From: Candidatus Woesearchaeota archaeon
GTDB lineage: Archaea; Nanobdellota; Nanobdellia; Woesearchaeales; UBA10216
Length of the DNA: 32,767 nucleotides
NCBI GenBank assembly: GCA_016188205.1
Contig: JACPIG010000020.1
Location: forward strand, 1 to 32,767
Direction: 5' to 3'
Below, one piece after another: positions 1,696 to 21,355 of the stretch. Every line of letters begins with the position of its first letter. Position 1 is the stretch's first letter. The position numbers and the translations under genes were made by a program. The notes under the pieces are model-generated. The model searched no databases. It had not been told where the DNA came from and worked only from the letters and a program-made list of their open reading frames with translations.

Positions 1696-2805
1696 ATGTG
1701 GTTTCAAATGTTTGGAAGAAAAAAAGGCGAAAAGGGGCTTGCTGAGGAGAAGTTTGGGCACGGCCATCTGAAAAAGGAAGATGTAATGAGGAGGAAGAAG
1801 CTCTTTATGCAGCCAAAGCGGAGCAAAGGGCTGCTTAAGCATTACCTTGAGAAGGCAGGAGTGAATATTGAGGGGGAAAAAGTTTCAAGGCACATATTCA
1901 GGCTGGCTGTTTTCCTTAACCTTCTTCTTTCCGTATACCTGATTTACAGGTTTTCCACTGACCTTAAGATAGGCGTTGTTTACGTTACTCTTGTGATGGT
2001 TCTCATATGGGTTTTTGCGTTTGTCGCTATACTTTTCCTTGTCTGGCTTTTCCTGTTTATTATGCTTGACCTCAGGGTTTTCAAGAGGAGAATAGGCATA
2101 GAAGAGGTTCTTCCGGACTATTTGCAGCTTACATCCGGAAACATAAGGGCAGGCATGCCGGTTGACAGGGCTTTGTGGTATGCTGTCAGGCCAAGGTTTG
2201 GCGTGCTTGCAAACGAGATAGAAATGGTTGCCAAGGAGACTATGAGCGGCTCTGACCTTGACGCTGCGCTCAGGAGGTTTTCTGACAAGTATGACTCTGT
2301 TGTTCTTAAGAGGTCAATAAACCTTCTTATTGAGAGCTATAACGCCGGCGGAGAGGTTGGCGACATACTTAACAAGATTTCCAACAACATAAAGGAAAAT
2401 CAGCTAATGCGGAAGGAGCTCGCTGCCAACGTGACTACTTATGCAATATTCATAGGCTTTGCCACCATCATAGCTTCCCCTTTGCTGTTTGCACTTTCAG
2501 GCCAGCTTCTTGAGGTGATTGGCAGGATAATGTCCACGATTGACATAAAGGATGTTCAGCAGACTGCTGGACTGGGCTTCTCATTTGCGTTCTCAAAGCC
2601 AGGCGTCTCCCTGTCTGACTTCAGGATTTTCGCAGCCATAAGCCTTGCAGTGACGTCTTTCTTCTCCGCAGCGATTATTGCAACCATAAGAAAGGGCGAC
2701 TTGAGGAGCGGAGTAAAGTACTTCCCTGTATTCTTCGCAATAACCCTGATTCTTTACTTCACAAGCTCCTTTGCATTCTCGTATCTTCTGAAGGGGATGT
2801 TTTAG
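1696..2805 (+). CDS. T2SF-domain pilus platform membrane protein (TadC/FlaJ-like), second of two
   Basis: 369 aa with the same TM/soluble/TM layout (LPDYLQLTSGNIRAGMPVDRALWYAV). Only 3 nt separate it from the previous gene. Ends in TAG. Confidence 0.7.
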   Translation: MWFQMFGRKKGEKGLAEEKFGHGHLKKEDVMRRKKLFMQPKRSKGLLKHYLEKAGVNIEGEKVSRHIFRLAVFLNLLLSVYLIYRFSTDLKIGVVYVTLVMVLIWVFAFVAILFLVWLFLFIMLDLRVFKRRIGIEEVLPDYLQLTSGNIRAGMPVDRALWYAVRPRFGVLANEIEMVAKETMSGSDLDAALRRFSDKYDSVVLKRSINLLIESYNAGGEVGDILNKISNNIKENQLMRKELAANVTTYAIFIGFATIIASPLLFALSGQLLEVIGRIMSTIDIKDVQQTAGLGFSFAFSKPGVSLSDFRIFAAISLAVTSFFSAAIIATIRKGDLRSGVKYFPVFFAITLILYFTSSFAFSYLLKGMF

Positions 2806-2806
2806 A

Positions 2807-5389
2807 ATGATAAAATCAAAGGGTTTCACAATCCTCATTTTTTGGTTGCTTCTTTTATCTGTATTCTCCTATGGCACTGAAATGCCCATGGATATTCGAT
2901 CACAAAAAATAGTCGGTGTTGAATTAACTAACTCCTGGCAAGATTACGATATGGACTACCCATATGTTGCATTTAAATCAACATTTAATAATTCGCAAAC
3001 GATATATCTTTACAACATAGAAACTTCTTCTCTTAAGAAAATAGATGAACTCGTAATTGATTGGACTTCATATCAAGAAACAAAAAAAGAGTTAATTGGT
3101 CTTTCTTTTCCAAAAATTAAGAAAAACAAATTAATTTACCTGAGAGAATACAAAAACAAATCATCAGATTTGGTAATTGTTGACTCTAATAAAAATGAAA
3201 TCATTGAGATTATAAGGTTTCCATGGGAAATTCCAAATATAAAAGATTTCGACGAAAATAATCAAAAATATTTATTTAATGGAGATATTTTGATATGGTT
3301 AAGTGACGGCGGCAATACTTATTCCAACTTGTTCAATCCTGATGAAAAATTCATAGTCGGCAGAACATATCCTCGATTACAATTACAGGGAACAAAAATG
3401 TTCTGGAAAGGAGGAGAATGTGAAATGTACGACTTCGCGGGTAATTCAAAAATTTCGATTAAGAGCGGATGTAGAAGTGTCTATGGAGATGTTGCTCTTT
3501 TGGACAATTATGAACTATATAACTTCCGAGAGGATAAAATTGTCAACACTGATTTCAAGAACAAGGATTTAAGTGGTTGCGACAATCAGTTAATACTAAC
3601 AAAAGACGGTATATGGGGTTACAAAGCACCATATGGAGGAGGTTATATCTGTTATTACGATTTAAAAAGTAAATCACTCATAAAAAAGATTGACACCGTT
3701 TCGAGTAATATGAAGTTTTTCACAGCAGATGAAAATCACTCATTAATCGCTTATTTTCAATACCAAAAAGAGCCAACTGAGGAACAAGGGATTTATATTT
3801 ACACTATTGAACGGATGGATTCAGAAAAAATATGCCAAGAATTCAATAGTGAAAGTGACCAAGACACTCTCAAAATGAAAACTTTATGCGGTTTATCAAG
3901 TTCAGAATGTAATTGTAAAACAACTTTGAGTAATAACGGTCAAATCGTAGATGAAGCTTCGACAAGTTTCAGTTTGATTGATTTTGAAAAAGAAAATGCA
4001 ACGAAGAAGATAAACACTCAAAGCAATTCTATTTTGGACAGCTATAATGAAAAATTAGAAACAAAAAAACAACTTATCCAAAGACAAGCTGCCGCTAAAA
4101 TAGTTGCTGAATCTGAAAAAAGAAGAAATCAAACTATAAGCCTCGTATTTTTTATCGTTGTTGCAACAATCTCAGGAATTCTAATAGTGAAAAAAATAAA
4201 TGCGACTATTGTTGAAAGAAAAAGAAACAAACTTGATAAATTATTGAGTAAAATAATTGGGGAGCCGGGACTGGAAGTAATAGCTTTAATGAATGACGCG
4301 GAAAATAATTTTATTAAGAAAAATTATGACTTAAGTCTAATAAATGCTGAAGAAGCATTGAAAAAACATCAATTATCTAAAAAATCATCAAAATCCAGTA
4401 AAAACTTAGTGAAGCTTGAAGGTAAATGGATAACATTTAGCGAAAGCCAAAAAGCTAAGGGGCTTATAAGTTTTGAAGGAAAGTGGATTACTAAAGAAGA
4501 ATTAGAAGAAATTAAACGGAAAAGGTTTGAGAAGTTACAAATTTCTAAAGGACTTGAAAAATACCAAGGGAAATGGGGGTCTCCCAAACAAGTAAAAGAA
4601 TGGAAAGAAATAGATGTAGGAATACAAACTGATTTTCAGCATTTAAATCATTTCCAATTTGAACGTTTTGTATCGATTGTCTTTGAAAAAATGGGTTATC
4701 AAACATATGTTACTAGGAAAACGGGAGATTATGGAATCGATGTAGTTGCAAAAAAAGGCGATGAAATAATTGCGATTCAGGTAAAACAAAACGCTAAAGG
4801 CAACAATGTTGGGAATGTTATTGTTCAAAATGTATTAGGGTCTATGAGGAAGTTCAAAGCAGAAAAAGCAATCATAATTACAACTTCAGATTTTACTATT
4901 CAAGCCAAGGAGCAAGCAAGAGACGAACCCATAGAGCTATGGAATGGAAAGTATTTCAAAACCTTAGTTAGAAAATATTTGATTGATTCGGGATCTGAAA
5001 TAGCTTCAAAGGAAAAAGATGAAAATCCGGATTTAATTTATAAAGCATTAACCAAATTAAAAAATAATGGAGATAGAGATTCAGGCTTTATCACTTTTGA
5101 GATTGATAAAAATAGTTGGCTTCAATGTTTATTATCAGAAAATGGACTAACTTTATACATGCCTTATGAGTTTAGAATAGAGTCCATATTAGTTTCATTT
5201 GGATTCAGTAAAGTAAACAAACCTTATTCCGAATTAACTGAGAAAGAATACATTTCTGATGAAGAGGAAAGCCCAAAAATGATTTACGCCCATTGCAGGC
5301 ACAACGTTGATTTATGTTCTAATATTACTAAGAAAATATTTTTAAATAATGATAAAACTATAAAAATAGAGTATGAATTAAATGGATAA
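2807..5389 (+). CDS. Membrane-spanning protein: N-terminal signal/anchor, repeat-rich extracytoplasmic region, central TM helix, coiled coil, 3x GKW repeats, Mrr_cat-type PD-(D/E)xK nuclease domain, unknown C-terminal domain
   Basis: 860-aa ORF at ~30% GC versus ~45-50% in the flanks. Central TM helix LVFFIVVATISGILIV. The nuclease block FERFVSIVFEKMGYQTYVTRKTGDYGIDVVAKKGDEIIAIQVKQ...IIITTSDFTIQAKEQA...IELWNGKYF matches the Mrr catalytic-domain pattern. Confidence 0.75.
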   Translation: MIKSKGFTILIFWLLLLSVFSYGTEMPMDIRSQKIVGVELTNSWQDYDMDYPYVAFKSTFNNSQTIYLYNIETSSLKKIDELVIDWTSYQETKKELIGLSFPKIKKNKLIYLREYKNKSSDLVIVDSNKNEIIEIIRFPWEIPNIKDFDENNQKYLFNGDILIWLSDGGNTYSNLFNPDEKFIVGRTYPRLQLQGTKMFWKGGECEMYDFAGNSKISIKSGCRSVYGDVALLDNYELYNFREDKIVNTDFKNKDLSGCDNQLILTKDGIWGYKAPYGGGYICYYDLKSKSLIKKIDTVSSNMKFFTADENHSLIAYFQYQKEPTEEQGIYIYTIERMDSEKICQEFNSESDQDTLKMKTLCGLSSSECNCKTTLSNNGQIVDEASTSFSLIDFEKENATKKINTQSNSILDSYNEKLETKKQLIQRQAAAKIVAESEKRRNQTISLVFFIVVATISGILIVKKINATIVERKRNKLDKLLSKIIGEPGLEVIALMNDAENNFIKKNYDLSLINAEEALKKHQLSKKSSKSSKNLVKLEGKWITFSESQKAKGLISFEGKWITKEELEEIKRKRFEKLQISKGLEKYQGKWGSPKQVKEWKEIDVGIQTDFQHLNHFQFERFVSIVFEKMGYQTYVTRKTGDYGIDVVAKKGDEIIAIQVKQNAKGNNVGNVIVQNVLGSMRKFKAEKAIIITTSDFTIQAKEQARDEPIELWNGKYFKTLVRKYLIDSGSEIASKEKDENPDLIYKALTKLKNNGDRDSGFITFEIDKNSWLQCLLSENGLTLYMPYEFRIESILVSFGFSKVNKPYSELTEKEYISDEEESPKMIYAHCRHNVDLCSNITKKIFLNNDKTIKIEYELNG

Positions 5390-5487
5390 TTTTTCATCTC
5401 GTTTTATTCTTTGCCCACAAATTTTATAACCTGGAAAGAAATTAATCGCTCATCAGACATAACAAATAGCGCTTTGCGTGATTCGCC

Positions 5488-6333
5488 CTACTTCAGTATC
5501 TCATAGAACGCGTCAAATATGGGGGTGTCTGTAGTTACGACATGGAACCCTGACCTCAGGGCTATGCTTACCTTTTCAAGCTCGTGCATATGCGCCTCAA
5601 GCTTTTTTAGGTAGTCTGACTTGAGCTTGGGGCTTATGTACGTGTGCATGAGCTCGCTTGTTTCAAGGTCGCGAAGCTTGACGTCGCCGTCAATGGCAAG
5701 CTTCCTTTCTGATGGGTCAAGGACCTGTATCAGCTTGATTTCGTTGTTTCCGAGCATGCGCATGCCTTCCTTTATGTTTTCCGGGTCAAACAGGCAGTCT
5801 GATATTGCGATTATTATGGCTCTTGTTCCGAGCGCTTTCCTGTAGCTCGCCATTGCCTTTGCGAAATCTGATATTCCTGAGGGCTTTGTGGTGTTGAGCA
5901 CTTCCACCATGCCTGCCAAATGGCTCATGCCCCTTTTCGGCTGGAAGACCCTGAGAGCGTCGGAAAAAGTCGCATATTGAAACTTTTCGTTGCCGCGCAT
6001 CGCTATGTATGCGAACCCCGCGCCAAGCATTGATGCGTAGTCAAACTTCGTTGGCTTGCCGTAGTTCATGCTTGCGCTGCTGTCTATTATTATGTGCACG
6101 ACAAGGTTTCTTTCCTCCTCATACCTTTTGACATAAAGGTTGTCAGTTCGCGCGTACACCTTCCAGTCTATCAGCCTGAAGTCGTCCCCTTCTGCGTACA
6201 TCCTGTGGTCCTTTATCGTGGCTCCTCTTCCTGTCATTATGCTCGGCCTTGAGCCCGCATACTTGGACGTAACTCTTTTCCTCATTATCAGGTTAAACCT
6301 GTCCAGGCTTGACAAATACTCCGTTGTTATCAT
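5488..6333 (-). CDS. DUF58 family protein (vWA-like fold, MoxR partner)
   Basis: RGATIKDHRMYAEGDDFRLIDWKVYARTDNLYVKRYEEE and VHIIIDSSASM match the DUF58 signature. It lies downstream of moxR. Confidence 0.85.
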   Translation of the reverse strand: MITTEYLSSLDRFNLIMRKRVTSKYAGSRPSIMTGRGATIKDHRMYAEGDDFRLIDWKVYARTDNLYVKRYEEERNLVVHIIIDSSASMNYGKPTKFDYASMLGAGFAYIAMRGNEKFQYATFSDALRVFQPKRGMSHLAGMVEVLNTTKPSGISDFAKAMASYRKALGTRAIIIAISDCLFDPENIKEGMRMLGNNEIKLIQVLDPSERKLAIDGDVKLRDLETSELMHTYISPKLKSDYLKKLEAHMHELEKVSIALRSGFHVVTTDTPIFDAFYEILK

Positions 6334-6393
6334 TTTCTGTTGCCGTTTGTATGTATGTGTTTGTGTTGGTGCTTGTGTGTGTTTTCCTCTTAA

Positions 6394-6423
6394 GCGGAAC
6401 TCCAGTAGTCAGCCCGCTATTAT
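6394..6423. repeat. Copy 1 of a perfect 30-bp direct repeat GCGGAACTCCAGTAGTCAGCCCGCTATTAT
   Basis: Exact match to 6607..6636, read directly from the sequence. Confidence 0.95.
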
Positions 6424-6466
6424 ATTAAATCGCATTAATTTTCGAACTTTTGATATGCGATTTAAT
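6424..6466. repeat. Hairpin a: 12-bp perfect inverted repeat ATTAAATCGCAT / ATGCGATTTAAT with a 19-nt loop containing TTTTCGA
   Basis: Read directly. Related in stem and loop sequence to hairpin b. Confidence 0.9.
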
Positions 6467-6469
6467 GTT

Positions 6470-6513
6470 TAGCAATTCGCACAAGATTTTTCGATAATTT
6501 ATGCGAATTGCTA
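6470..6513. repeat. Hairpin b: 12-bp perfect inverted repeat TAGCAATTCGCA / TGCGAATTGCTA with a 20-nt loop containing TTTTCGA
   Basis: Read directly. It forms a tandem pair with hairpin a. Confidence 0.9.
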
Positions 6514-6606
6514 TTAATTAGTTTTTAAATAGTATTTTGCATCAGGGGATTAATGCAGGTTTTGTTGTTCTGGGTTTTTCCTAATGCTTCTTTCTCGTCT
6601 CTTTTG

Positions 6607-6636
6607 GCGGAACTCCAGTAGTCAGCCCGCTATTAT
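6607..6636. repeat. Copy 2 of the perfect 30-bp direct repeat
   Basis: Exact match to 6394..6423. It lies 30 nt downstream of the moxR stop. Confidence 0.95.
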
Positions 6637-6665
6637 TTTTAGTCTGTTATTCAAACATTTCTATA

Positions 6666-7607
6666 CTACTTTGTCTTCTCAATCAGCTGTGTTATCGCGT
6701 CATCGGTTGTCATTCCTTTTCTTTCTGCCTCAAAGTTCAGTATGACCCTGTGCCTCAGTATGGGGTATGCCATCTTTGCAATATCTTCAGACGCAACGTG
6801 ATTCCTTCCGTTTATCAGCGCCCTTGCCTTTGCCGCGAGTATCAGCCCGATTGTTGCTCTTGGTGATGCTCCGTACTGTATGAGGTCAAAGTTCCTTGTC
6901 TTCGTCACCAGCTTCAAAATCTTCTCTTTAAGGTCTGAAGCTATCGGCACCTGCCTCGCATATCCTTGCAGCGCGAGCAGCTGTGTTTTGTCAAGCACTA
7001 TCTTCAGCCTTCTGTCTTTCAGCTCTGCGCCGTATCTGTTGACTATTTCCATTTCTTCCTGGTAGGTTGGGTAGCCGATCTTTATTTTCAAAAGAAATCT
7101 GTCTGCCTGTGCCTCAGGTAACGGATACGTTCCTTCCTGCTCAATGGGGTTTTGTGTTGCAAGCACGAAGAACGGCGCGTCCAGCTTGTATGTTGAGTTT
7201 CCTACTGTGACCTGCTTTTCCTGCATCGCTTCAAGAAGGGCGGATTGGGTTTTTGGCGTTGCCCTGTTTATCTCGTCAGCCAGCACTATGTTGGCGAATA
7301 TTGGGCCGGGGTGGAAGCGGAACTCCCTTTTGCCGCTTATCTCCTCTATGACGTATGTGCCTATTATGTCAGAGGGCATCAGGTCTGGCGTGTTCTGTAT
7401 CCTGCTGAACTTCAGGTCCATTATCCTTGCTATCGTCCTGACCATCATTGTCTTGGCCAGCCCGGGGTAGCCTTCAAGCAGCACGTTGCTGTCGCACAGC
7501 AGCGACACAAGTATCTGCTCTATGGCTTCCTGCTGCCCGACTATTATCTTGCTTATCTCTGCCTGCACGTCCTCAAATGTCTTTTTGTAAGCCTGCATTT
7601 CCATCAC
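6666..7607 (-). CDS. moxR: MoxR-family AAA+ ATPase
   Basis: 313 aa. Walker A GYPGLAKT, Walker B LADEINRA, and the whole sequence is collinear with MoxR/RavA-type ATPases. DUF58 and vWA genes sit in the same operon. Confidence 0.9.
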   Translation of the reverse strand: MMEMQAYKKTFEDVQAEISKIIVGQQEAIEQILVSLLCDSNVLLEGYPGLAKTMMVRTIARIMDLKFSRIQNTPDLMPSDIIGTYVIEEISGKREFRFHPGPIFANIVLADEINRATPKTQSALLEAMQEKQVTVGNSTYKLDAPFFVLATQNPIEQEGTYPLPEAQADRFLLKIKIGYPTYQEEMEIVNRYGAELKDRRLKIVLDKTQLLALQGYARQVPIASDLKEKILKLVTKTRNFDLIQYGASPRATIGLILAAKARALINGRNHVASEDIAKMAYPILRHRVILNFEAERKGMTTDDAITQLIEKTK

Positions 7608-7629
7608 CTTTTTGTTTTGTGTTTTTGTT

Positions 7630-8445
7630 CTATGTTCCCTTGGCTATCGCTGTGAAGTAGTTTTTCACTATTTCCTGCTGCTCCCTCGGTATCTTTTCCT
7701 CGTAAGCGGCTGCTGAAACCGCGAATGCCTCTTTCGGCTCGCTGTCGGCAAACTCACTTTCCTCAGCGTCTTTTATCTGCCTTATGTTTATGGAGTCGCC
7801 TGCCGGCTTTATGACCAGTTTAAGTTCTTCTTCGCCGAGCTTTGCTATGCTTGGAGCGCCGAATATGTCGTCCTCGCTTGCCAGCTTCGCGCCCCCTTTT
7901 TTGCCGCCGCCTGCGCCGCCGGGTGTTGGCTCGCCTTTTCCCAGCTCAAAGCTCACGTTTATTTCTGTAGCTGCCTTCACTTTTTCCACTGCCGCGTCTA
8001 TGGGGTCAAGCTTTATTGACACTGGTGCGAGCAGAAGCACGAGGAAGCACAAAAGCGTTATTATGCCTGCTTTTGCAAATGATTTCCTGTCATCCAGGAA
8101 CTCTGCTTCCTCAACGTTTCTGAGTTCTGTCAGGACTTCCTGGTGAAGCTCGTTCACCACCGGGTTTTCCGCGTTTATGTACTCTGCTGAAGTCCTCAGC
8201 CTTTCGTTCAGCCTTGGGTAGTATTCCTCAACCTTTCTTATCTTGCTTATGCTTGCCCTTTTTGCAGTTTCAACTATGAGGTATGCCATGGTTATGGAAA
8301 ACGCGAGTATTGCAGGTATGTTGAATATTGAGAGCACAAGGTATGCTGCAAGGAAAACTATGAGGGCGTCAAGCATTACTGTGAATATTAGTGCCTTGTT
8401 AAGCCCTGCTCTGAGCTCCTTTAGCGCGGTTGCGAGTATTTTCAT
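7630..8445 (-). CDS. Membrane protein of the MoxR/vWA operon with a Gly-rich linker
   Basis: 271 aa. Three predicted TM helices and a PTPGGAGGGKKGGAKL tract. Tightly packed between neighbouring operon genes. Confidence 0.6.
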   Translation of the reverse strand: MKILATALKELRAGLNKALIFTVMLDALIVFLAAYLVLSIFNIPAILAFSITMAYLIVETAKRASISKIRKVEEYYPRLNERLRTSAEYINAENPVVNELHQEVLTELRNVEEAEFLDDRKSFAKAGIITLLCFLVLLLAPVSIKLDPIDAAVEKVKAATEINVSFELGKGEPTPGGAGGGKKGGAKLASEDDIFGAPSIAKLGEEELKLVIKPAGDSINIRQIKDAEESEFADSEPKEAFAVSAAAYEEKIPREQQEIVKNYFTAIAKGT

Positions 8446-8446
8446 T

Positions 8447-8953
8447 TTAGCATGCTTCGTTAAGCCGCTGCCTTAGTGCGCACACCTCTGCTCTCAGGCT
8501 TGATACCCTGGCTTCAAGCTCTGCTGCGTATTGCTGCTGCGTTTTAAGTGCTGATTCGGATGTTGACAGTTCTGATTTTGTTGATGACAGGTCTGCTTCT
8601 GCTGCCTTGAGCTTTGTAAGGGTGTCTATAAGCTCGCTTCTTGTCCGGGCAAGCTCGTCTGCCAGCTTTTCATTGTAGTCGCTTATGTTTGTGTAGAGCG
8701 TGTCAAACTGCTCCTTTGCCTTGGTTTTGAGCTTCAGCTCCTCGTTTACATTGCCAAGCTGGGCTTTTTGCTGCGAGAGGTTGTAGTTGAGCTTGTTTAG
8801 CTGGTTCAGCTTGTCGCCGTAGCTCAGGGACAGGTTCTTGTATGTTACCTGGTAGTAGGTTGTGAGCCCTGCCATCACTCCCAATACGACTATTACGAGC
8901 AGTAGCAGGAACAGGTTTACGTTCCTTCTTATATACGCCATGGCTCTTTTCAC
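8447..8953 (-). CDS. N-terminally anchored coiled-coil protein
   Basis: 168 aa with one TM helix followed by heptad-like sequence. The GTG start at 8953 overlaps the upstream stop (GTGA). An alternative ATG lies at 8941. Confidence 0.6.
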   Translation of the reverse strand: MKRAMAYIRRNVNLFLLLLVIVVLGVMAGLTTYYQVTYKNLSLSYGDKLNQLNKLNYNLSQQKAQLGNVNEELKLKTKAKEQFDTLYTNISDYNEKLADELARTRSELIDTLTKLKAAEADLSSTKSELSTSESALKTQQQYAAELEARVSSLRAEVCALRQRLNEAC

Positions 8954-11346
8954 CTCAATTGCTTATTTATTCTTTTTGTTTCCATGATTCTGCGGACAGC
9001 TATCTCAAAGAGGAATATGCAGAGGGCTGCAAGCGCAAATGCCCATGAGTAGCTCTTGCTGTCTGTCTTAACCCTTCTTGAGTCCTGCTTCACCTTGTTT
9101 ATTATGCCTTGAACGTCGTCTGGTGCAAACATGTCCCCGTTTGTTATGGCAACTAATTCGCTCAGGCTGGGGTTCATTCCTGTCCTGCTGAGCTCCTTGT
9201 CATGGTTTACCGCGGTTATTGCGTCAAAGAAGCTGTAAAACCCTGCCTCTTTTGGGGTGTAAGAAGCTGTATACAGCTTTTCGCCTTCTTTTGAGAAGTT
9301 AAGGTTTGGAGCCGCAGGCGGCTTTCTTGATATGACTCTTATCTCAAGCTCTTCGCCAAGGTATATGTCGTCCATGTCAACGTCAAAGTCCTTGTTCCTG
9401 CTCAGGTCGCCTATCACCCAGTTTGCTGTTCTTGACAGCAGGATGGAGTTCTGCCTGCCGAGCATCTGGCCGTTCCACGCTGAGCCGTCGTCTGTTGAGA
9501 GAGCAGCTATCCTTCCCAGCCCGAAGCGCCATGTCGTGAGTATTGGCACATTGTTTGCTGTTGTGACAAGAAGCTGCGCCTGTGACTTTGGTATGACGAA
9601 GTTGTAGCCTGTAACAGATGCCTTCAGCTTTACGTTTCTGGTTATGAAGTGATAATTGTTTACTGCCTCAAGCCCGTATGTGTCGTTTGCCTTCTCTGAC
9701 TCGCCGAGAACGATTTTGATTTTTTCTGTTTCCTTCGGCTCAAAATATGCCCCTTTTCCTGCATTTGCAATGTCCAGCATGTGCTGTGTGTCTGTCCTTT
9801 CTCCAACCCCGACCGCGTACACCTTTGCGCCTGTAGATGCAGCCACTCCTGCCGCTCTTATATCATCTGCCTGAGGCCCTCCTGCTATGCCGTCTGATAT
9901 CAGTATTATGTTTTTGCTGCCGTGGGCTGATGAGAGCATGTCTGTTGCTGCAGAAATCCCTGAGGCTATGTCTGTGCCCCTGCCATAGGTTATTCTTTCT
10001 ATCTTTTCGCCCAGGTCAGGGTTGTCAGAGAGCTTGGCAATGTCAGAGACTTTGTGGGGGACTGACTCAAATGCTATCACGCCCACGTTGTCTGTTTTCT
10101 TCAGGTCGTTTAGTATTGAGAGTGCAAGCGCCTTCTCAACATCTTTTACGCTATACCTGCTTGCCTTGTTGAATGTGCTGCCTGTGCTTCCTGACACGTC
10201 TATGAGGAGCACAACATTTACTTCTTTCTTCGGCTCTTCCTTGCCTGTACCGACAACAACAGGAAGCAGAGCCTCATAGCTCTTGTAGTAAGGCGACTTG
10301 TAGCTGTCCCTGTCAAAGGAATTCTTTCCTCCTATAACAAACAGCCCGTTGCCTTCAAGCACGTAATTGCTTAATGTGTCAAGAGGCAGTTTCTCTGCCT
10401 TTATGTCGTTTATTATGACTGCTGCATATCCTTCTATGTCTTCCGGAAGCGCGCTTGCTGTCTTTACATCGTATATGCTCGTGAATATCTGTGCTGCAGG
10501 AGAGTTCTTCTCCGTTACGAGCAGAACCTTTGGCTTTGGCTGAACCTTGACTGTCTTTATGAAATGATTGTTCTGCGGGAAATAATCTTCTGAGCTTATA
10601 TCTGCCGTAATCCTGTGGTATCCTTCAGCGAGGCTTTTTGTGAACTCCAGCTTTATGCTGCCGCTTACCGGCTGGTCTATTGCAAGCTCATTGTCCACTA
10701 TGACTCGCAGCTTGTACGGCACTATTGTGCCGGTCTGCCTTACAGTGACTTCAAAGGTGTTTTCAGCGTCTGCTGTTGTTTCAGAAGGGCCTTCAACTGT
10801 GACGTAGGCGTCTTTTTTCTCAGGGCTCAGCTTGACAGCGCTTATTGTTGTGTTAAGGGATGAGGCAAAAAGCATCATGTCTCCCAGCGACCTTCCATAG
10901 TTGCTGTTGCCGTCTGTTATGAGAAGGACGCTGTCGTCGCCCTGTATGTTTGCCAGTATTGCATCGCCTATTGCTGACCTGTTTCCTTCAGCCAGAGTCC
11001 TGACATTCACCGGGATTGAGCTGCTCAGCTTGGAAGCAAGCTGAGCTGCTGTTTTGTTGTCAAAAATTTCCATGGAAGCTGATTTGTCAACAAATATGTT
11101 CAGTTCAGGTTTTCCCTGTATGGCTTCCTGCCTGAGCTCAAACGGCTGCGCAAGTGCCATTATGAGCAGCGAGAGGGCTGCCAGCCTTGATGTGTAAAGG
11201 AACATCCTTTTCCATTTCTTGCCCTTGTTGAATGCCTGCTGTTCCCTGTAGTCTTTGAACCTGATAAAGTCGTGCTTTATTATGAAGAACAGGATTATTG
11301 CCAGGGGAATTATTGAGTACAGGAGCTGGGGGTTTTTGAAGTCCAT
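8950..11346 (-). CDS. BatA-type N-terminal anchor plus double vWA-domain membrane protein
   Basis: MDFKNPQLLYSIIPLAIILFF resembles a BatA N-terminal region. Two MIDAS-like motifs (FVDKSASM, LLIDVSGSTGS) and a C-terminal TM helix. The preferred start is ATG 11346, overlapping the upstream TGA (TGATG). The ORF track extends it to 11364. Confidence 0.8.
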   Translation of the reverse strand: MDFKNPQLLYSIIPLAIILFFIIKHDFIRFKDYREQQAFNKGKKWKRMFLYTSRLAALSLLIMALAQPFELRQEAIQGKPELNIFVDKSASMEIFDNKTAAQLASKLSSSIPVNVRTLAEGNRSAIGDAILANIQGDDSVLLITDGNSNYGRSLGDMMLFASSLNTTISAVKLSPEKKDAYVTVEGPSETTADAENTFEVTVRQTGTIVPYKLRVIVDNELAIDQPVSGSIKLEFTKSLAEGYHRITADISSEDYFPQNNHFIKTVKVQPKPKVLLVTEKNSPAAQIFTSIYDVKTASALPEDIEGYAAVIINDIKAEKLPLDTLSNYVLEGNGLFVIGGKNSFDRDSYKSPYYKSYEALLPVVVGTGKEEPKKEVNVVLLIDVSGSTGSTFNKASRYSVKDVEKALALSILNDLKKTDNVGVIAFESVPHKVSDIAKLSDNPDLGEKIERITYGRGTDIASGISAATDMLSSAHGSKNIILISDGIAGGPQADDIRAAGVAASTGAKVYAVGVGERTDTQHMLDIANAGKGAYFEPKETEKIKIVLGESEKANDTYGLEAVNNYHFITRNVKLKASVTGYNFVIPKSQAQLLVTTANNVPILTTWRFGLGRIAALSTDDGSAWNGQMLGRQNSILLSRTANWVIGDLSRNKDFDVDMDDIYLGEELEIRVISRKPPAAPNLNFSKEGEKLYTASYTPKEAGFYSFFDAITAVNHDKELSRTGMNPSLSELVAITNGDMFAPDDVQGIINKVKQDSRRVKTDSKSYSWAFALAALCIFLFEIAVRRIMETKRINKQLR

Positions 11347-13106
11347 CAGAAGTCGCCCCTCCATTTGACGTAAAGCAGCTCCGCAAGCAGCAGCAGGAAT
11401 CCTGCTATCAATAAGTATTCTTCAAGCTTCACGTCCCTTTTTTCCTGCCCTTCTTTTGCTGCAAGCCGCTTTTCCTCGTCAAGCAGCTTGTCTGCCTCTT
11501 TGCCCACGTCAGACTCTTTCTCGCTGAGCAGGCTCGCAGCTGCTTTTTTTGTGCCAAACGTGTAGAATCCTGCCTTGTCCATGTATTGCCTGTTTGCATC
11601 TGCAATAATTCTTCCTGTCCTGAAGTTGTAGTCGTTCAGTTCTTCTGTCTCTGTGAGGAATCCTATGAGCTTGTTCCAGAATATAGGATACGAAACTGTT
11701 GTCTTGAAGTCGCTGAAGTCGTCAAGTATCCCGTAATACACTATTTTGCCGAATCCTTCGTCCTTAACTGCGAGCATTGCTGCGCCGTCTGCGTCGGCCA
11801 CTACTGCTGTTCCTGCTTTTGGTGTTGAGTTGTAGTAGCGGAATGCAGTGCCGAAGTCAACGTCTGAAGTGAACTTGTTTATTATCCTTGCCGTGACTTT
11901 TGTGTTGTTGAGGCTGCCTCCAATTTGCACAGGCAGAAGCCCGCTGTCTATTGCCCCTGCGTTTTCCTGTGCAGTTATTATGAGCGAGCTTCCGTTCCTT
12001 ACCTTTTTCAGTGCCTCCTGATAGAAGTCAGGCAGTATGAGCCCTGGGGAAGCTTTGTGAATTATCAGTATGTCATAGTCAAGGCTTGGTATTACTGGCG
12101 GCTCTGCTGTGGCGAGCTGTATGTCCCGGGATGCCTGCAGGGCTGTTTTCAGGCTGCTTTTCTCTGAGTTGGTTATCAGAAGGACTTTTATTTTCTTGGA
12201 TGAAGGAGCGCTTATGTATGCGCGGTTGTCCGGGTCAAAATCATCCTTCTCCATTATCCTGAGCTCTGTTGAGCCGGAAGGCGTTGCAAAGTCAAAGGTT
12301 TCCACTGACTTTGGAAGGATTTTTTTTATAATCTGCTGTGTGCCCTGCTCGCTTATTATGCCTAATGTAAGTGTTTTCTGCTCGCTGTCATAGTTCTTTA
12401 CAACTGCTTTTGTAGCGGACTTGCCGAGGAAAAGGTCTATTATGCCCGCATTGCCTGCCCTGCCGCCAACATTTACAAACTCAACAGGTATGCCTTTTGA
12501 CAAAAGAACGCGCTTGGCAACATTCGGGTCAGGCCCTTCTGTGGCTATGAAGTCGCTTATGACAACCACCTTGCCTGTCTTTCCCTTCATGACGTCGCCT
12601 GCAAGCAGCATTGCGTCGCCTATGTTTGATGTTGTGTCGCTTGGCTTTGCTAAGGAAAGGATTTTTTCTGCTTCCTCGCGGTTTCCAGCCTCAAGAACAA
12701 GCAGGGGCATGTTCTGTGCAAGCACTATTGCTGCATCGCCGTGTATGCTTTTCCTCGCAGCATCGACAGCGTTTTGGAAGCGGTTGCCTGTCTGCATGCT
12801 TGCAGAGGTGTCAAGGACTATTGCTGTCTTCTCGATGGCATGTGAGCCGAAGACGGTTGTGTAAGGGGCTGTGAGGGCAAATGACAGGGCGGCAAGGCCG
12901 AGCAGTTGTATGAGGAAAAGGAGATTATTGAGAAGCCGCTTGAAAAAAGCCGCTTTTTTTGCGAATCCCTTTTCCCGCATGAAGAACATCAATGAGGGCA
13001 TGTTCCTCTCAACAGGCCTCGGCCTCATCAGGTATAGCAGGACCAGTATCAGCAGGCTGCCAAACGCATACCATCCAAGCTGGTTAGCAAACTGAATATC
13101 TGCCAT
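11346..13106 (-). CDS. BatA-type N-terminal anchor plus vWA-domain membrane protein
   Basis: 586 aa. MADIQFANQLGWYAFGSLLILVLLYLMRPRP, vWA MIDAS motif VLDTSASM, and a C-terminal TM helix. Confidence 0.8.
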   Translation of the reverse strand: MADIQFANQLGWYAFGSLLILVLLYLMRPRPVERNMPSLMFFMREKGFAKKAAFFKRLLNNLLFLIQLLGLAALSFALTAPYTTVFGSHAIEKTAIVLDTSASMQTGNRFQNAVDAARKSIHGDAAIVLAQNMPLLVLEAGNREEAEKILSLAKPSDTTSNIGDAMLLAGDVMKGKTGKVVVISDFIATEGPDPNVAKRVLLSKGIPVEFVNVGGRAGNAGIIDLFLGKSATKAVVKNYDSEQKTLTLGIISEQGTQQIIKKILPKSVETFDFATPSGSTELRIMEKDDFDPDNRAYISAPSSKKIKVLLITNSEKSSLKTALQASRDIQLATAEPPVIPSLDYDILIIHKASPGLILPDFYQEALKKVRNGSSLIITAQENAGAIDSGLLPVQIGGSLNNTKVTARIINKFTSDVDFGTAFRYYNSTPKAGTAVVADADGAAMLAVKDEGFGKIVYYGILDDFSDFKTTVSYPIFWNKLIGFLTETEELNDYNFRTGRIIADANRQYMDKAGFYTFGTKKAAASLLSEKESDVGKEADKLLDEEKRLAAKEGQEKRDVKLEEYLLIAGFLLLLAELLYVKWRGDF

Positions 13107-13487: not shown

Positions 13488-14174
13488 TCAGAACTCGCCA
13501 ATCTTTTTTTGCCCCCTGCTCCCCGCAACTCTCTTGTATGGCATCCAGCTCTTCCTGAATATCTCCGGGTGCCTGCTGAAGTTTTTTTCAAGGAATGCCT
13601 TTGTGAGTGGGTCTGAAGGGTATCCTGAGCCAAAGTTGCTGCCAATCTTCTTTTTGATTTTCTCTATTTCGTCCTCGCGCGTCACTTTTGCAAGTATTGA
13701 TGCTGCGCCGCACTCCACATGGTTCAAATCAGCTTTATGCTCCACAGCAACCTCAATGCCCTTGTTGTCAAGCAGCTTCATCAGATAGCGCTTGTAATTG
13801 ACCACGTTGTTGCTTGGGCTGTCAATTATCGCCTTTTCCGGCTTCAACGCGTTTATTATCTCGGCTGACTTGTGCGCCTCCAGCCAGTTCAGGTTCAGGC
13901 TGTCTGACTCAAGCGCAGCATCAATCTCAGCAGGCTGTATAACCACAATCTTGTGCCTTATGGCGATGCCTTTTATCCTGTCAAACAGCTTCCTCATCCT
14001 TCCGATTGTCAGCAGCTTTGAGTCCTTCACGCCTATGGCTTTAAGGCTCTCGCTGCCTTCCTCATCAACGAGGACTCCTGCCATTACCATTGGACCGATG
14101 ATGGGCCCTTTCGGAGAACTAAGGAAACCCTATAGTTCACTTCCGCTCTCATCAATTCCGCAGGTAATGCTCAT
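13488..14174 (-). CDS. rnhB: Ribonuclease HII, interrupted by a 30-nt in-frame insert containing TAG; proposed exons 14174..14140 and 14109..13488 (218 aa after splicing)
   Basis: The upstream in-frame reading is MSITCGIDESG-SEL*GFLSSP-KGPIIGPMVMAGV. Without the insert, the canonical RNase HII N-terminus GIDE(A/S)GRGPxIGP is restored. The rest of the ORF (DSKLLT, IDSPSNN, HKAD, ASILAKV, GSGYPSD) is typical RNase HII. Confidence 0.85.
14110..14139 (-). other. Putative bulge-helix-bulge (BHB) mini-intron in rnhB mRNA
   Basis: On the mRNA: central helix CGGA(14145-14142)/UCCG(14115-14112); 3-nt bulges AGU(14141-14139) and AAA(14111-14109); inner helix GAACU/AGUUC; a 13-nt loop carrying the UAG. 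Cleavage after the second nt of each bulge removes exactly 30 nt. Confidence 0.6.
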
Positions 14175-15205
14175 ATTGAAATAACCTCAAAATTTGTAGG
14201 GGTGAGTTCCCACATTTTGTCCTCTCTCCTTTTTACCAAGCCAAGCCTCTCCAATTCTTTTAATCTTCTGAACGCAGCCGTCCAGCAAACACCAGCCTCA
14301 GAGGCAAGATCTTTGGTTCTTTGTGCATCATTGAGCAGCATATTTAAATATTTATACTTTATATGAGAAACAGGCACGAGTTTGCTATCCGCCAAGCCCC
14401 AATAATCAATGCTTCTGACCCTGTGGTTTTTCACAAGTCCTTCTTTTTTAAGTTCTACTAGTATGTCTGATATTCTTGCATTAGATCGATTAAACTGACT
14501 GGCCAGGGATTCACTGGTTGAGAAATCATTTCCTCTTAAGTTGTTGATTATTTTGTTCCTAAGTGAGAATTTCGTATAATGCATTTGCTTATACTCGGAA
14601 AGCATTAATTGGAACCGCGCTCTTTTTTCGGGATGCAAATCGGCTATTACGATGGCGGCAAGCTTGTCGAAATTCTCTTTGCCACTTATAATATACCCTT
14701 CTCTATGGCGATCGGAAAAAGTATAGTCTACTCCAAATAATTCCAAGGATTTCTCGATAGATCCGACTCTTTTGGATTGCGCCATTCTAATCACCCTGCA
14801 ATTATGTGAGCCGCATTTAATATTCCCTTCTCCTGCAAAAAACCCCCGCAGAATTCCTGGATAAGAATCGGCATCAAATTGAGTTGAATTGACTATTTCT
14901 TTCCATTTTTTAACAACCTCAACAGATGCCAATCGCCAAATGAAATATGGCTTACGCGCCCTCTTATCTATATAGTTCCTGATTTGAACATTTGAAAGAG
15001 GAATTTTTTGGAACTGTCCTGTAGAATTATACACATATATTCGAATCTTTAGATCGGCTACATTGAAAATTTCCACTATTGTTTTATGAAATAGTTCAAC
15101 TAACTCCCAGCAGCTATTTGTGAAAGTAATTTCTGCTTTTGTTTTATTGTCACCTTCTGCCAGCCACAATCCAACACATTCAGCTAATTTCTTGTCACGC
15201 GTCAT
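14171..15205 (-). CDS. Free-standing double-motif LAGLIDADG homing-endonuclease-like protein fused to two winged-helix DNA-binding modules
   Basis: Motif 1 is VGLWLAEGD and motif 2 is LRGFFAGEGN, about 100 aa apart. The C-terminal region has SLASQFNRSNARISDILVELKKEGLV and DLASEAGVCWTAAFRRLKELERLGLV. GC is lower than in the neighbours. Its stop overlaps the rnhB ATG (ATGA). Confidence 0.75.
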   Translation of the reverse strand: MTRDKKLAECVGLWLAEGDNKTKAEITFTNSCWELVELFHKTIVEIFNVADLKIRIYVYNSTGQFQKIPLSNVQIRNYIDKRARKPYFIWRLASVEVVKKWKEIVNSTQFDADSYPGILRGFFAGEGNIKCGSHNCRVIRMAQSKRVGSIEKSLELFGVDYTFSDRHREGYIISGKENFDKLAAIVIADLHPEKRARFQLMLSEYKQMHYTKFSLRNKIINNLRGNDFSTSESLASQFNRSNARISDILVELKKEGLVKNHRVRSIDYWGLADSKLVPVSHIKYKYLNMLLNDAQRTKDLASEAGVCWTAAFRRLKELERLGLVKRREDKMWELTPTNFEVISI

Positions 15206-16869: not shown

Positions 16870-19356
16870 ATGGAAAAAGAGGAGACATTCAGGCAGGAAG
16901 TTCAGGGAAAAAACTCGGGCAAAGGCATAAATGCCCCTGTCAGTTCTTTAGGTGAGGAGCTTGTCCTTGCAAAATCCGGCCTTTCAGTTTCGCGCGCAGA
17001 GATAAACTCCCTCGCCAGGCGGATTTCTGAGTTGGAAGAGCTCAACACCAAGCTAAGGGAACACATACTTCTGAGGGATTCCTTTGAGAGGAACCTGGAC
17101 AAGGAATACAAAAGGCAGCTCAGCCAGAAAGACGAGGTGATAAGAAGGCTTGCAGCACTCAGCACAAAAGATGCTCAGGCAGGAATATCAAACAGCACTT
17201 TGGCAGAAGCAAAGCCCGAGCCAGCCCAGGCAGATAGCCAGATTCAAACAAGCAGGGAAGAAGAGCTGAGAAGGCTTGGCGACCACTACAGGCAGAGAAG
17301 CGAAGCGCAGGAAAAGCTCTCCGCACAGCTGGCAGAGCAGCTCAACGACAAAAACACAGCCATACAGAGGCTCAAAGAGTTCGTTTCTGAGAGGGAAAAG
17401 CTGTCGCAGCAGATAGAGGAACAGCTGCAGAAGGAACTTGCTGAAAAGGAAGAAGAACTGAACAGCCTAAAGAGGGCTGGCAGCACAAGAACCGGCAGGG
17501 CTGCAACTTGGCTCAGGGAGCTTGAGCAGGCAAGACAGGAACTGAAGTTAAAGGAAGCAGAAGGCAGGAAGACTGTGCTTGAGCTTGTTGGCCTTAAGGA
17601 AACCGGGGCGATACTCGAAAGGAAGCTCAGGGACAGCGAACAGCAACTGCAGAAGCTGAAGGCAGAGAAAGAAAACCCCGTAGAGGACGAAAAAGCCAGC
17701 CAGCTGGCAAATAAGCTTCATGAGAAGGAAGAGGAAATCCGCCGCCTTACGAATTATTATGCTGACAAGGAACAGGCATACGAGGCAATACAGTTACAGC
17801 TTTCAGACCGCCTCAAGGAGAAAAACCGCGAAACAGAAAGGCTCAAAACATTCCTGGCAGAGAGGGAAGAGCTGTCGCAGAAGGTTGAAGAGCAGCTTCA
17901 AAAGGAAATAGCCGCAAAAGAGTCAGAGTTAAGTGAGCTCAGGCACACAAAAAGCCACGGAAAGGCGCTTATTCTCCAAAGGCAGCTTGAGCACGCATCA
18001 CAGGTCATCAGGCTGAAGGACTCAGCCAACAAAAAAATCCTGCTGGAGCTTGCCTCAGCCAAAGAAACAGGAGCCATACTCTCAAGAAAGCTGAAAGACG
18101 GGCAAGAGCACTCAGAAAGCCTGAAGGCGCAATATGAGAAGATAATTGGCACGATAAAGGCTGACAATGAAAGGATAATGAAAGGGCTCATAGGGGACTA
18201 CAACGCAAGGCTCGCGGCTGCAAAAACAGAAGCAGAGCGCACAAAGGCAGAGCTGTCGGCAAAGGAATCAGAGCTTCAAGTGCATAAGCAGCGCATAGAC
18301 GAGGCCATAAGGGAATTCGGCATAAGGGCGCAGACAGTCATATCCATGAGGGAAAGCATAGAGCCGCTTGAAAAAGCAGCAACACAGGCAGCAACGACAG
18401 CGGCAATCCAGGCAACGCAAGCTGCTCAGCAGGCAACACAGCAACAAGCAATCCCCACACAGGCTCCTGAATCCGGGCACGCAGAAACAATAACAAAAGA
18501 CGAGCTTGAGCAGTACGCCAGCAAGGCAAAGGTGCTGAGAGAAGCGCTCTACAGGAAGGACAGGGAGCTTACAAAAAGAGAAGCTGAGATGAGGCAGAAA
18601 GAGGAAGGGCTTTTATCAAGGGAAAAAGAAGTAAAGGCCATGATAACCACAGCAGAGCAGCGCCTCAAAGAGCTTGAAAGAAGAGAAGACTCAGGAGACA
18701 GAAAAGAGCAGATACTGCTAAAGCAGCAGGAGGCATTCAACCGCGAACTCCAAGCGCTTGAAGCAGCAGGAAGCAGGCTGACAATTGTGGAGTCAGAGCT
18801 GGAATCCCAGCTTACAGTCGCGGCAAGGCAGGCAGCCCCTTCAGTGACTCTGCCCACCCCATTCGCATCAGAACCTATCCAAATTCCCTCTGCGGCAAGA
18901 GAAGCGCCGCAGCAGCCGGAAAGCATAGCTGTAATGGAGCCTGTGCAGCAGAAAACCATTGAAGCAGGAGAAATAAAGGAAATAAAGCAGGAGAAGACGC
19001 TGTTGCAGAAGACAGAGCCAAAGCAGACAATGCCAAAGCCAGCACCAGCAACCGCAATACCCGCGATTAAAGCGCCAGCGATTAAGACATACACGCCAGA
19101 GCAGGCAGCCCCTATGCAAGCCAAGCCAAAGCAGCAACAGGCTTATCCGGCAACAGCACCAGAAAAACTTGCTGGCGGCTTAACCATCAACCTTGAAGAG
19201 CAAACCCTCGGCTACTCAGAAGTTGAAGAGGTAATGTCAATGATAGACGTTGCTATGCAGCACAAAGAAAGCATTGAGCAGATAAAGAACTCTCTTCTCG
19301 CATCAGGCTACTCAAAGGAAAACGTGGACAAGGCATTGAAAAAGATGAATCTTTAG
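16870..19356 (+). CDS. Long coiled-coil protein with an internal tandem duplication, Q/A/P-rich linker and a small C-terminal helical (UBA-like) domain
   Basis: 828 aa, rich in E/K/Q/L heptads. Two ~140-aa units align (RRLGDHYRQ...LKETGAILERKLRDSEQ vs RRLTNYYADKEQ...AKETGAILSRKLKDGQE). The C-terminal IKNSLLASGYSKENVDKALKKM is UBA-like by pattern only. Confidence 0.7.
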   Translation: MEKEETFRQEVQGKNSGKGINAPVSSLGEELVLAKSGLSVSRAEINSLARRISELEELNTKLREHILLRDSFERNLDKEYKRQLSQKDEVIRRLAALSTKDAQAGISNSTLAEAKPEPAQADSQIQTSREEELRRLGDHYRQRSEAQEKLSAQLAEQLNDKNTAIQRLKEFVSEREKLSQQIEEQLQKELAEKEEELNSLKRAGSTRTGRAATWLRELEQARQELKLKEAEGRKTVLELVGLKETGAILERKLRDSEQQLQKLKAEKENPVEDEKASQLANKLHEKEEEIRRLTNYYADKEQAYEAIQLQLSDRLKEKNRETERLKTFLAEREELSQKVEEQLQKEIAAKESELSELRHTKSHGKALILQRQLEHASQVIRLKDSANKKILLELASAKETGAILSRKLKDGQEHSESLKAQYEKIIGTIKADNERIMKGLIGDYNARLAAAKTEAERTKAELSAKESELQVHKQRIDEAIREFGIRAQTVISMRESIEPLEKAATQAATTAAIQATQAAQQATQQQAIPTQAPESGHAETITKDELEQYASKAKVLREALYRKDRELTKREAEMRQKEEGLLSREKEVKAMITTAEQRLKELERREDSGDRKEQILLKQQEAFNRELQALEAAGSRLTIVESELESQLTVAARQAAPSVTLPTPFASEPIQIPSAAREAPQQPESIAVMEPVQQKTIEAGEIKEIKQEKTLLQKTEPKQTMPKPAPATAIPAIKAPAIKTYTPEQAAPMQAKPKQQQAYPATAPEKLAGGLTINLEEQTLGYSEVEEVMSMIDVAMQHKESIEQIKNSLLASGYSKENVDKALKKMNL
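17266..18150 (+). repeat. Tandem ~435-nt (~140-aa) intragenic duplication within the coiled-coil gene
   Basis: Unit 1 is ~17266-17700 and unit 2 is ~17740-18150. They share the blocks ERLK.F..ERE.LSQ..EEQLQKE.A.KE.EL and L.ELV/A..KETGAIL.RKL.D. Confidence 0.75.
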
Positions 19357-19361
19357 GTTTT

Positions 19362-20309: not shown

Positions 20310-20340
20310 AAAACAGGGAAACGGTTATATAAATTTTTCC

Positions 20341-21285: not shown

Positions 21286-21355
21286 TTTGAGAATTAATTA
21301 TCGGCTGCTTATTTAAATATTGCTGTTGAAAAGCGCAGAATCCAAAGATATAGAT

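Follow-up and report, generated by a model that had tools for sequence, protein, structure and literature searches.

Why does a gene of foreign composition, coding for what looks like a membrane-tethered nuclease, lie directly behind a pilus-like operon of an archaeon? The question is raised by a stretch of DNA of 32,767 nt (contig JACPIG010000020.1, positions 1 to 32,767; the window in what follows), in which one open reading frame (ORF) combines a predicted signal peptide, a large N-terminal domain, a transmembrane (TM) helix, three copies of a short repeat that we call GKW, and an Mrr-type nuclease domain (Mrr_cat). The DNA carrying this ORF is a real insertion, a single-gene accessory cassette at a strain-variable cargo hotspot, and the hotspot is located at the 3' end of a type IV pilus-like operon. 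As for function, we give about even chances to a membrane-sequestered defence nuclease, analogous rather than homologous to the bacterial systems SNIPE and Epona.

The cassette and its immediate flanks are laid out as follows (window coordinates).

2807..5389, forward strand: ORF for the 860-aa product, stop codon included
2806..5487, forward strand: low-GC cargo block of 2,682 nt, between the stop codons of the convergent T2SSF and DUF58 genes
5390..5487, forward strand: AT-rich 3' spacer of 98 nt with T-runs, still part of the cargo
1696..2805, forward strand: left flank, second T2SSF (TadC/PilC-like) gene of the type IV pilus-like operon
5488..6333, reverse strand: right flank, DUF58 gene, with its stop codon at 5488-5490

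A preliminary description of this DNA had placed the start codon 1 nt past the stop codon of a pilus gene, and we found the same arrangement: the T2SSF gene ends in TAG at 2803-2805 and the cargo ATG lies at 2807, with AGGGGAT about 9 nt before it as a possible ribosome-binding site. The drop in GC reported there was also recovered in windowed composition. GC is 0.311 in the block and 0.479 over the remaining window (z = -9.0 against 248 windows of the same size, the minimum among them being 0.434), and GC at third codon positions (GC3) is 0.26 in the ORF and 0.46-0.63 in most other long ORFs. GC rises again at 5488, the stop of the convergent DUF58 gene. The composition shift is real and is sharply delimited by the two flanking stop codons. 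No terminal direct or inverted repeats, tRNA or integrase were found bounding the block.

An abrupt change of composition in a metagenomic contig could also mean that a low-GC segment was misjoined into it during assembly. We consider this as good as ruled out, since independent Logan contigs from four runs cross both island junctions without a mismatch (2643-2987 in run X3; 2698-3249 and 5303-5515 in X4; 4027-5515 in X1), which excludes an assembly chimera. Comparison with relatives then reveals what the site looks like without this gene. A Woesearchaeota metagenome-assembled genome (MAG) whose T2SSF is 71% identical (L004) holds both T2SSF genes, then 6 nt, then the convergent DUF58 and MoxR genes, and represents the empty site. 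On a 100-kb contig (L026) encoding T2SSE, T2SSF, DUF58 and MoxR proteins 91-96% identical to those of the window, the matching site is occupied by 1.88 kb of different cargo (8847-10722), and homology to the window at the DNA level extends exactly to the two stop codons. This cargo consists of three genes for proteins of 155, 73 and 274 aa, of which the first has an LVDSGA motif, the second is a DUF5678 protein and the third is an orphan; the motif of the 155-aa ORF is retropepsin-like, and this ORF has no Pfam match. Like the Mrr gene, the first of the three begins directly past the T2SSF stop codon. Because both cargo types thus open with a gene co-oriented with the pilus operon directly past that stop, read-through transcription of the cargo from the operon is likely.

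The same alternation occurs within the source metagenomes. Other contigs of the same runs match the T2SSF 3' end (91-94% identity) and diverge beyond it, entering either the L026-type cargo or a compact empty site with overlapping stop codons. Depths at the shared T2SSF end were 34 for the island, 15 for the other cargo and 11 for the empty site in X3, and 6, 5 and 7, respectively, in X1. A further junction is present in all four runs (X1-X4), where a DUF58 3' end identical to that of the window (5486-5520) has unrelated sequence upstream, and this is a fourth allele at the hotspot. The contigs read ...CACAATCCAGTTGCATTGTGGTCCGAATTT upstream of the DUF58 3' end; the junction itself is 'CACAATCC...GAATTT', and a 30-mer of it was not found in the metagenome contigs searched or in L026. 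An apparent joint of 2804 to 5495, taken as a precise deletion extending DUF58, was dropped as a candidate, as the contig in question, of 145 nt, comes from a related strain that has the compact empty site. In two relatives at 66-68% identity (L001, L006) the downstream context differs, and they are uninformative on the site. The horizontal acquisition proposed in the preliminary description is therefore borne out by an empty site, by other cargo and by alleles with and without the island in the source metagenomes. A single site shows four junction types within one aquifer community, and the locus offers a clean natural case of cassette turnover.

The position of the gene could be taken to suggest a nuclease for DNA uptake or nucleotide scavenging, co-transcribed with the pilus-like system and cutting DNA from a host or the environment. 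Dependence on imported nucleotides is widely assumed for DPANN archaea; the host of the cassette belongs to DPANN, in which the clade of this protein is enriched, and a gene that begins 1 nt past the last gene of the pilus operon has no space for a promoter of its own. However, adjacency to the pilus genes is strain-specific, the site being empty or filled with unrelated cargo in close relatives, and presence/absence polymorphism together with foreign GC is unexpected for a nutritional core function. The site is a cargo hotspot, homologues have unrelated neighbours, and the link to the pilus made in the preliminary description is not conserved. Moreover, EndA and NucA, the membrane nucleases of competent bacteria with which such a role would be comparable, act outside the cell, whereas the nuclease here is predicted to lie inside. 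A role in DNA uptake thus appears unlikely to us.

What kind of protein does the cassette encode? We distinguished the following parts, all on the forward strand.

2807..2875: predicted signal peptide, aa 1-23, with MIKSKG as n-region, a hydrophobic core, and S-Y-G at -3 to -1
2876..4132: putative ectodomain, aa 24-442, beta-rich and ending in a long helix that enters the TM segment
4133..4189: predicted TM helix, aa 443-461, Kyte-Doolittle 2.68, followed by KKINATIVERKRNK
4190..4399: helical linker, aa 462-531, with helices at aa 466-483 and 489-526 in an AlphaFold2 (AF2) model (predicted local distance difference test, pLDDT, 54-79)
4400..4612: three GKW repeats, aa 532-550, 551-580 and 581-602, net charge about +7
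4640..4966: Mrr_cat (PF04471) PD-(D/E)xK domain, aa 612-720
4991..5386: orphan C-terminal domain, aa 729-860, 132 aa

Hydropathy marked two hydrophobic segments, aa 6-24 and aa 443-461, in agreement with the N-terminal anchor or signal and the single central TM helix described earlier. By eye, the first has the Sec-type n/h/c shape (MIKSKG-FTILIFWLLLLSVF-SYG, then TE), and an equivalent signal stands in the upstream ORF of a homologue (L021). Directly past the second come the residues KK..RKRNK, with 6 positive charges within the next 15 residues. Of the 11 cysteines, 8 fall in the ectodomain, as do 5 of the 6 N-x-S/T sequons, and five of the ectodomain cysteines are shared with the homologue P0075. 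The protein is accordingly predicted to be a type I membrane protein, with the N-terminal ectodomain outside and the nuclease in the cytoplasm, because of the signal peptide, the positive-inside rule, the conserved ectodomain cysteines and the CBM96 and lectin-like domains that stand N-terminal to the TM segment in relatives; such extracellular-type domains support this orientation. The membrane-tethered, cytoplasmic Mrr nuclease of the preliminary description is thereby upheld as a prediction.

The nature of the ectodomain is less clear. It has no Pfam, PHROG, NCBIfam or PDB-sequence relative, and no PD40 or WD40 match was found in Pfam. An AF2 model, built from an alignment of two sequences, has a mean pLDDT of 53.6 (below 50 in the first 183 residues, 60-89 thereafter) and is, at this low confidence, all-beta with about 29 strands. 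All 50 of the Foldseek matches listed are beta-propellers, including TolB, BtuK1, the clathrin terminal domain and DCAF1, but with TM-scores of only about 0.2. The preliminary description had seen repeated, propeller-like beta-strand units here. The repeats did not stand up, the best pair of internal 14-mers scoring 35 and shuffled sequences also reaching 35, while the beta-rich character was recovered in the low-confidence model only. A beta-propeller is thus no more than a reasonable guess.

On the predicted cytoplasmic side, the linker gave no match in searches of Pfam, NCBIfam, PHROGs and PDB sequences. A coiled coil had been placed here; it is seen as two long predicted helices within aa 466-526, and in no other form. 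The three GKW repeats are readily confirmed, with G-K-W at aa 539, 558 and 588, each unit being modelled by AF2 as a beta-hairpin and a helix. The third abuts the nuclease, an arrangement conserved throughout the family. From 241 units in 102 retrieved proteins, we obtained the consensus QxAKGLVkYxGkWvTPEEk and a modal period of 23 aa. There is no dedicated Pfam family for the repeat. Single repeats weakly match PF24424 (FNG) and PF12419 (DUF3670 of SNF2 helicases); the name 'FNG domain' (PF24424, matched by a repeat of protein P0071) was not traced in the literature.

The Mrr_cat assignment of the preliminary description held in profile searches, the Pfam match covering profile positions 3-114 of 115 with E 1.3e-27 and 96.7 bits (cutoff 21). 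In the AF2 model, in which pLDDT exceeds 90 from about aa 555 to 730, the domain adopts a restriction-endonuclease-like alpha/beta fold. Its top Foldseek matches are MspJI and AspBHI, then AF1548 and Hjc (E 6e-7 to 1e-3; top structures 4f0p, 4oc8 and 1y88). The pattern E...D...(Q/E)-x-K is that of active Mrr enzymes in the PD-(D/E)xK superfamily, and E619, D641, D645 and Q658-V-K660 (the Q-x-K) are invariant in 60 aligned homologues. Judging from these residues, the nuclease looks catalytically intact and appears active. A silent Mrr-like fold, through which a surface or adhesion protein would bind DNA or a ligand and tether DNA or a partner at the membrane without cutting, is suggested by a secondary Pfam match to NA-iREase1, an 'inactive' restriction endonuclease (REase) family (E 2.2e-8). 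Yet the match to Mrr_cat is far stronger, and the invariance of E619, D645 and Q658-x-K660 also argues against such a reading, which we regard as most improbable. In PADLOC, only Mrr-type effector modules were matched (those of ZorD, PDC-S02 and type IV REases). The further C-terminal domain noted earlier (aa ~729-860) proved to be an orphan: it has no Pfam, PHROG, NCBIfam or PDB-sequence match and is absent from every homologue found. Homologue coverage ends at the nuclease, and the AF2 model of the tail (pLDDT 33-60) is unusable.

To place the protein among its relatives, we searched 1.84 billion representative proteins exhaustively with aa 1-610 in phmmer, and made a separate search with aa 601-860. 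The first search returned 80 matches, 79 of them only on aa ~520-610, the GKW region. The sole match to reach the ectodomain, P0075, is collinear over aa 207-728 (31% identity, E 6e-60). In its locus (L021), a run of N at ~540-552, a scaffold gap, splits the gene into two called genes, and the ORF before the gap matches the signal peptide and the first ~120 ectodomain residues of our query. The public P0075 (545 aa) is therefore N-terminally truncated, and by alignment L021/P0075 reads as one full-length homologue without the C-terminal tail. No match to the exact 860-aa protein was found among the public contig records searched.

The closest relatives of the nuclease are many proteins of 260-430 aa at 59-69% identity, from MAGs that, where named, belong to Nanoarchaeota, Woesearchaeota or Aenigmatarchaeota. 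Their layout consists of 1-4 N-terminal hydrophobic segments, a K/E-rich helix (coiled-coil), one GKW unit and Mrr_cat. Nearly all of the top 20 matches have the GKW unit, and 19 of them a TM segment; most homologues end 1-20 aa past Mrr_cat. Larger members vary the N-terminal part. P0079 has a signal peptide, CBM96, more beta domains, a TM segment, three GKW units and Mrr_cat, while P0114/P0140 have a signal peptide, a legume-lectin-like domain, a TM segment, a PH-like-looking module past the TM helix (by eye), three GKW units, Mrr_cat and tetratricopeptide repeats (TPRs). Such C-terminal TPRs are added in some of the GKW + Mrr_cat proteins with large N-terminal parts. In this mostly DPANN clade, GKW + Mrr_cat is the constant module, and the N-terminal membrane or ectodomain part the variable one. 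The query, with a hydrophobic segment upstream, GKW abutting the nuclease and 59-69% nuclease identity, groups with this clade. In the literature searched, we found neither the TM + GKW + Mrr_cat clade nor the GKW repeat described.

These relatives modify two earlier statements. That Mrr_cat domains are normally soluble needs qualifying, as the closest clade is membrane-anchored and Epona joins TM segments to Mrr_cat. The layout that had been called unusual is not unique, since its TM + GKW + Mrr_cat core recurs in many DPANN proteins; what differs among them is the N-terminal part. GKW units also occur more widely. In P0068, P0071, P0107 and about 50 other proteins they are present in 2-7 copies, many of these proteins having no nuclease, usually past an N-terminal hydrophobic segment; one such nuclease-free protein belongs to Candidatus Uabimicrobium amorphum, a planctomycete. 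A viral origin of the clade was considered and is not supported, the viral contigs of IMG/VR carrying only distant Mrr_cat domains (25-42% identity) without the GKW part.

Does the rest of the family travel in the same way? We compared GC3 of the homologue with that of its neighbours at four loci.

L021: homologue 0.17-0.20; most neighbours ~0.5-0.6; one further low-GC ORF (0.20)
L022: homologue 0.26; neighbours mixed, most at 0.49-0.62, with several low-GC ORFs at 0.21-0.34
L023: homologue 0.25; all 12 neighbours at 0.53-0.61, making it the only low-GC gene of 13
L024: homologue 0.31; neighbours 0.37-0.56

At each of the four loci, the homologue is low in GC relative to most of its neighbours, which may reflect either frequent transfer from low-GC donors or a persistent AT bias of the family. 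The neighbourhoods are mutually unrelated (a helicase; glycosyltransferases; FtsZ with HicAB), and the TM + GKW + Mrr_cat family behaves as mobile cargo. At L024, a LAGLIDADG_3 gene lies ~1.3 kb from the Mrr homologue. Single-gene, low-GC insertions that recur in several genomes without an integrase, with edges precisely at stop codons here and a LAGLIDADG-type gene as another low-GC ORF of the window, could point to a selfish or addictive cassette, acting by homing-like cleavage of empty sites or by post-segregational killing. But a homing enzyme would have no use for a membrane tether or a 420-aa ectodomain, the block has no cognate immunity or antitoxin gene, and no terminal repeats were found; we therefore hold a selfish cassette to be very improbable.

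How might a membrane-bound nuclease serve its carrier? DPANN archaea have tiny genomes and live as cells attached to others with which they exchange material, and their defences are poorly charted. One precedent is SNIPE (PD-lambda-1) of E. coli, a membrane-bound nuclease that cuts phage DNA during injection (PMC13190303). SNIPE consists of a TM segment, DUF4041 and a GIY-YIG nuclease; once the TM segment is deleted, the protein is toxic and attacks the nucleoid, and variation is greatest in its N-terminal region (PMC13190303). By analogy, the protein described here may work like SNIPE. Its nuclease would be kept on the inner membrane face, at a distance from the chromosome, and would cut DNA crossing the envelope, be it viral or that of some other mobile element. 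DNA binding or oligomerisation is a possible function of the basic GKW repeats, and the variable outside or membrane part may determine the location of the protein or the target that it recognises. In favour of this reading we count the turnover of cargo at the site, the domain layout, the family and its mobility, the PADLOC matches to parts of defence systems, and the precedents of SNIPE and Epona.

Several points weigh against this defence role. All members of the clade are known from sequence only, and the topology rests on the rules of signal peptide and positive-inside charge. Short homologues with 2-3 TM segments are ambiguous in orientation, and in the nuclease-free protein P0068 GKW follows a plain signal peptide, so the repeat is not compartment-specific. 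Neither an Mrr_N nor an SRA-type reader was found in the 860 aa (Pfam, sub-regions at E <=5), three homologue loci (glycosyltransferases, FtsZ, helicase) share no conserved defence-island neighbourhood, and a search for transcript data or RNA runs found none.

The ectodomain also lends itself to a different account, in line with the gating by an outside sensor that the preliminary description proposed, namely signal-gated suicide or abortive infection: on binding a virus or foreign surface, the ectodomain would act through the TM helix and linker, for example by clustering, to activate the nuclease, and all DNA of the cell would be degraded. Single-pass receptors commonly signal by oligomerisation, which the GKW repeats could mediate; a large, fast-evolving ectodomain is here coupled to a conserved effector, and carbohydrate-binding ectodomains occur elsewhere in the family. 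Among the closest relatives, however, most lack an ectodomain and have just 1-4 TM segments, so an outside sensor is unnecessary for the core function, and we find a suicide effector doubtful. The related proposal of a one-component transmembrane immune receptor, in which a propeller-like ectodomain would sense a virus or cell surface and GKW clustering would activate the Mrr nuclease, seems to us a similarly long shot. If it were true, modular outside-in sensing (propeller-like, CBM96, lectin-like) would be encoded by cassettes exchanged among DPANN. GKW is a widespread short motif, and its possible role, be it DNA binding, membrane binding or oligomerisation, is now open to testing.

The host that carries the cassette is most likely a mid-GC, Woesearchaeota-like DPANN archaeon of an aquifer. 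The closest relatives of the flanking T2SSF protein (<=71%) come from groundwater MAGs labelled Candidatus Woesearchaeota or Nanoarchaeota, and the named best matches of the replication factor C (RFC) small subunit of the window are exclusively Woesearchaeota or Nanoarchaeota (67-73%). Of the sampled words of the region, 75-88% are present in four groundwater-metagenome runs of one study. The loci L001 and L006 are near-identical, with an identical 271-aa T2SSF protein, and differ in label, one record reading 'uncultured Methanosarcinales archaeon' and the other 'Candidatus Woesearchaeota archaeon'; we take this to be a labelling conflict, in which one of the two taxonomic labels must be wrong.

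Beyond the cassette, the window contains the following features.

32-802 and 877-1692: upstream members of the pilus-like operon, T2SSE and T2SSF, respectively
6666-7607: MoxR AAA+ gene beyond DUF58, followed by VWA/BatA genes
5488-13106, reverse strand: complete cluster of MoxR, DUF58, DUF7502, coiled-coil, VWA (804 aa) and BatA-VWA-DUF7408 genes
14171-15205, reverse strand: second low-GC ORF, 344 aa, GC 0.384, GC3 0.37
16870-22405: four long ORFs without any Pfam match, of 828 aa (forward strand), then 314, 313 and 348 aa (reverse strand)

The cluster at 5488-13106 is of Bat/aerotolerance-like type and convergent to the pilus operon, and its MoxR-DUF58 pair is kept in many relatives. The ORF at 14171-15205, with weak matches to LAGLIDADG_3 and to winged-helix families (TrmB/MarR/HTH_24), is probably another foreign gene. 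The 828-aa ORF lies on an A-rich strand, with AT skew of up to 0.53.

Finally, we compared the protein with known systems. Type IV restriction enzymes such as E. coli Mrr, MspJI and AspBHI share its catalytic fold and motif, but they are soluble and have an N-terminal reader of modified DNA (Mrr_N or SRA-like), whereas the query is predicted to be membrane-anchored and no reader was detected in it. Zorya type I, in which the ZorAB envelope sensor is paired with the nuclease ZorD, resembles it in concept, as an envelope-associated sensor coupled to local DNA degradation, and the Mrr-like C-terminal module of ZorD is matched in PADLOC (E 2e-17, nuclease module only). Zorya nevertheless comprises several proteins and includes a MotAB-like channel and an SNF2 helicase, neither of which is found in or near the cassette. 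The best PADLOC match (E 2e-18) is the candidate PDC-S02, likewise a single gene ending in Mrr_cat; only its profile positions ~189-309 of 334, the nuclease, are matched, the N-terminal parts differ, and PDC-S02 is itself unvalidated.

Epona, from an integron cassette of Vibrio cholerae, combines a holin-like domain of two TM segments (2TM) with Mrr_cat and is reported to have anti-phage activity (bioRxiv 10.1101/2024.07.02.601686). It resembles our protein in uniting TM segments and Mrr_cat in one chain and in being encoded by a promoter-poor cassette in a variable array. It is bacterial, has 2TM and lacks a large ectodomain, whereas the query has a predicted signal peptide, a 420-aa ectodomain and one TM helix; Epona is set apart here by its description, and the comparison is limited to the shared TM segments and Mrr_cat.

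The likeness to SNIPE lies in organisation. Both are single-gene systems; SNIPE has an N-terminal membrane anchor that holds the nuclease in the cytoplasm, as is predicted for the query. Conservation is highest in the nuclease of both, their N-terminal regions vary strongly in length and content, and both place a basic module between anchor and nuclease, DUF4041 in SNIPE and the GKW repeats here. There is no homology, however, SNIPE having GIY-YIG and DUF4041 (without a Pfam match here) and the query Mrr_cat and GKW. The TM segment of SNIPE homologues lies within the first 70 aa, whereas ~420 aa precede it here, and SNIPE is bacterial and experimentally tested, while the query is archaeal and known from sequence.

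The protein is not a canonical Mrr, MspJI, SNIPE, Epona or Zorya component, as defining features of each were looked for in it and are lacking. Membrane-tethered defence nucleases are already known; new here are the DPANN setting, the large exchangeable ectodomains and the well-documented cargo hotspot. The principle of SNIPE, by which self and non-self are told apart by position and not by sequence, was shown only recently, in E. coli. If our preferred analogy is right, the cassette would represent an independent archaeal invention of that principle on an Mrr nuclease, with the addition of exchangeable ectodomains that SNIPE lacks.

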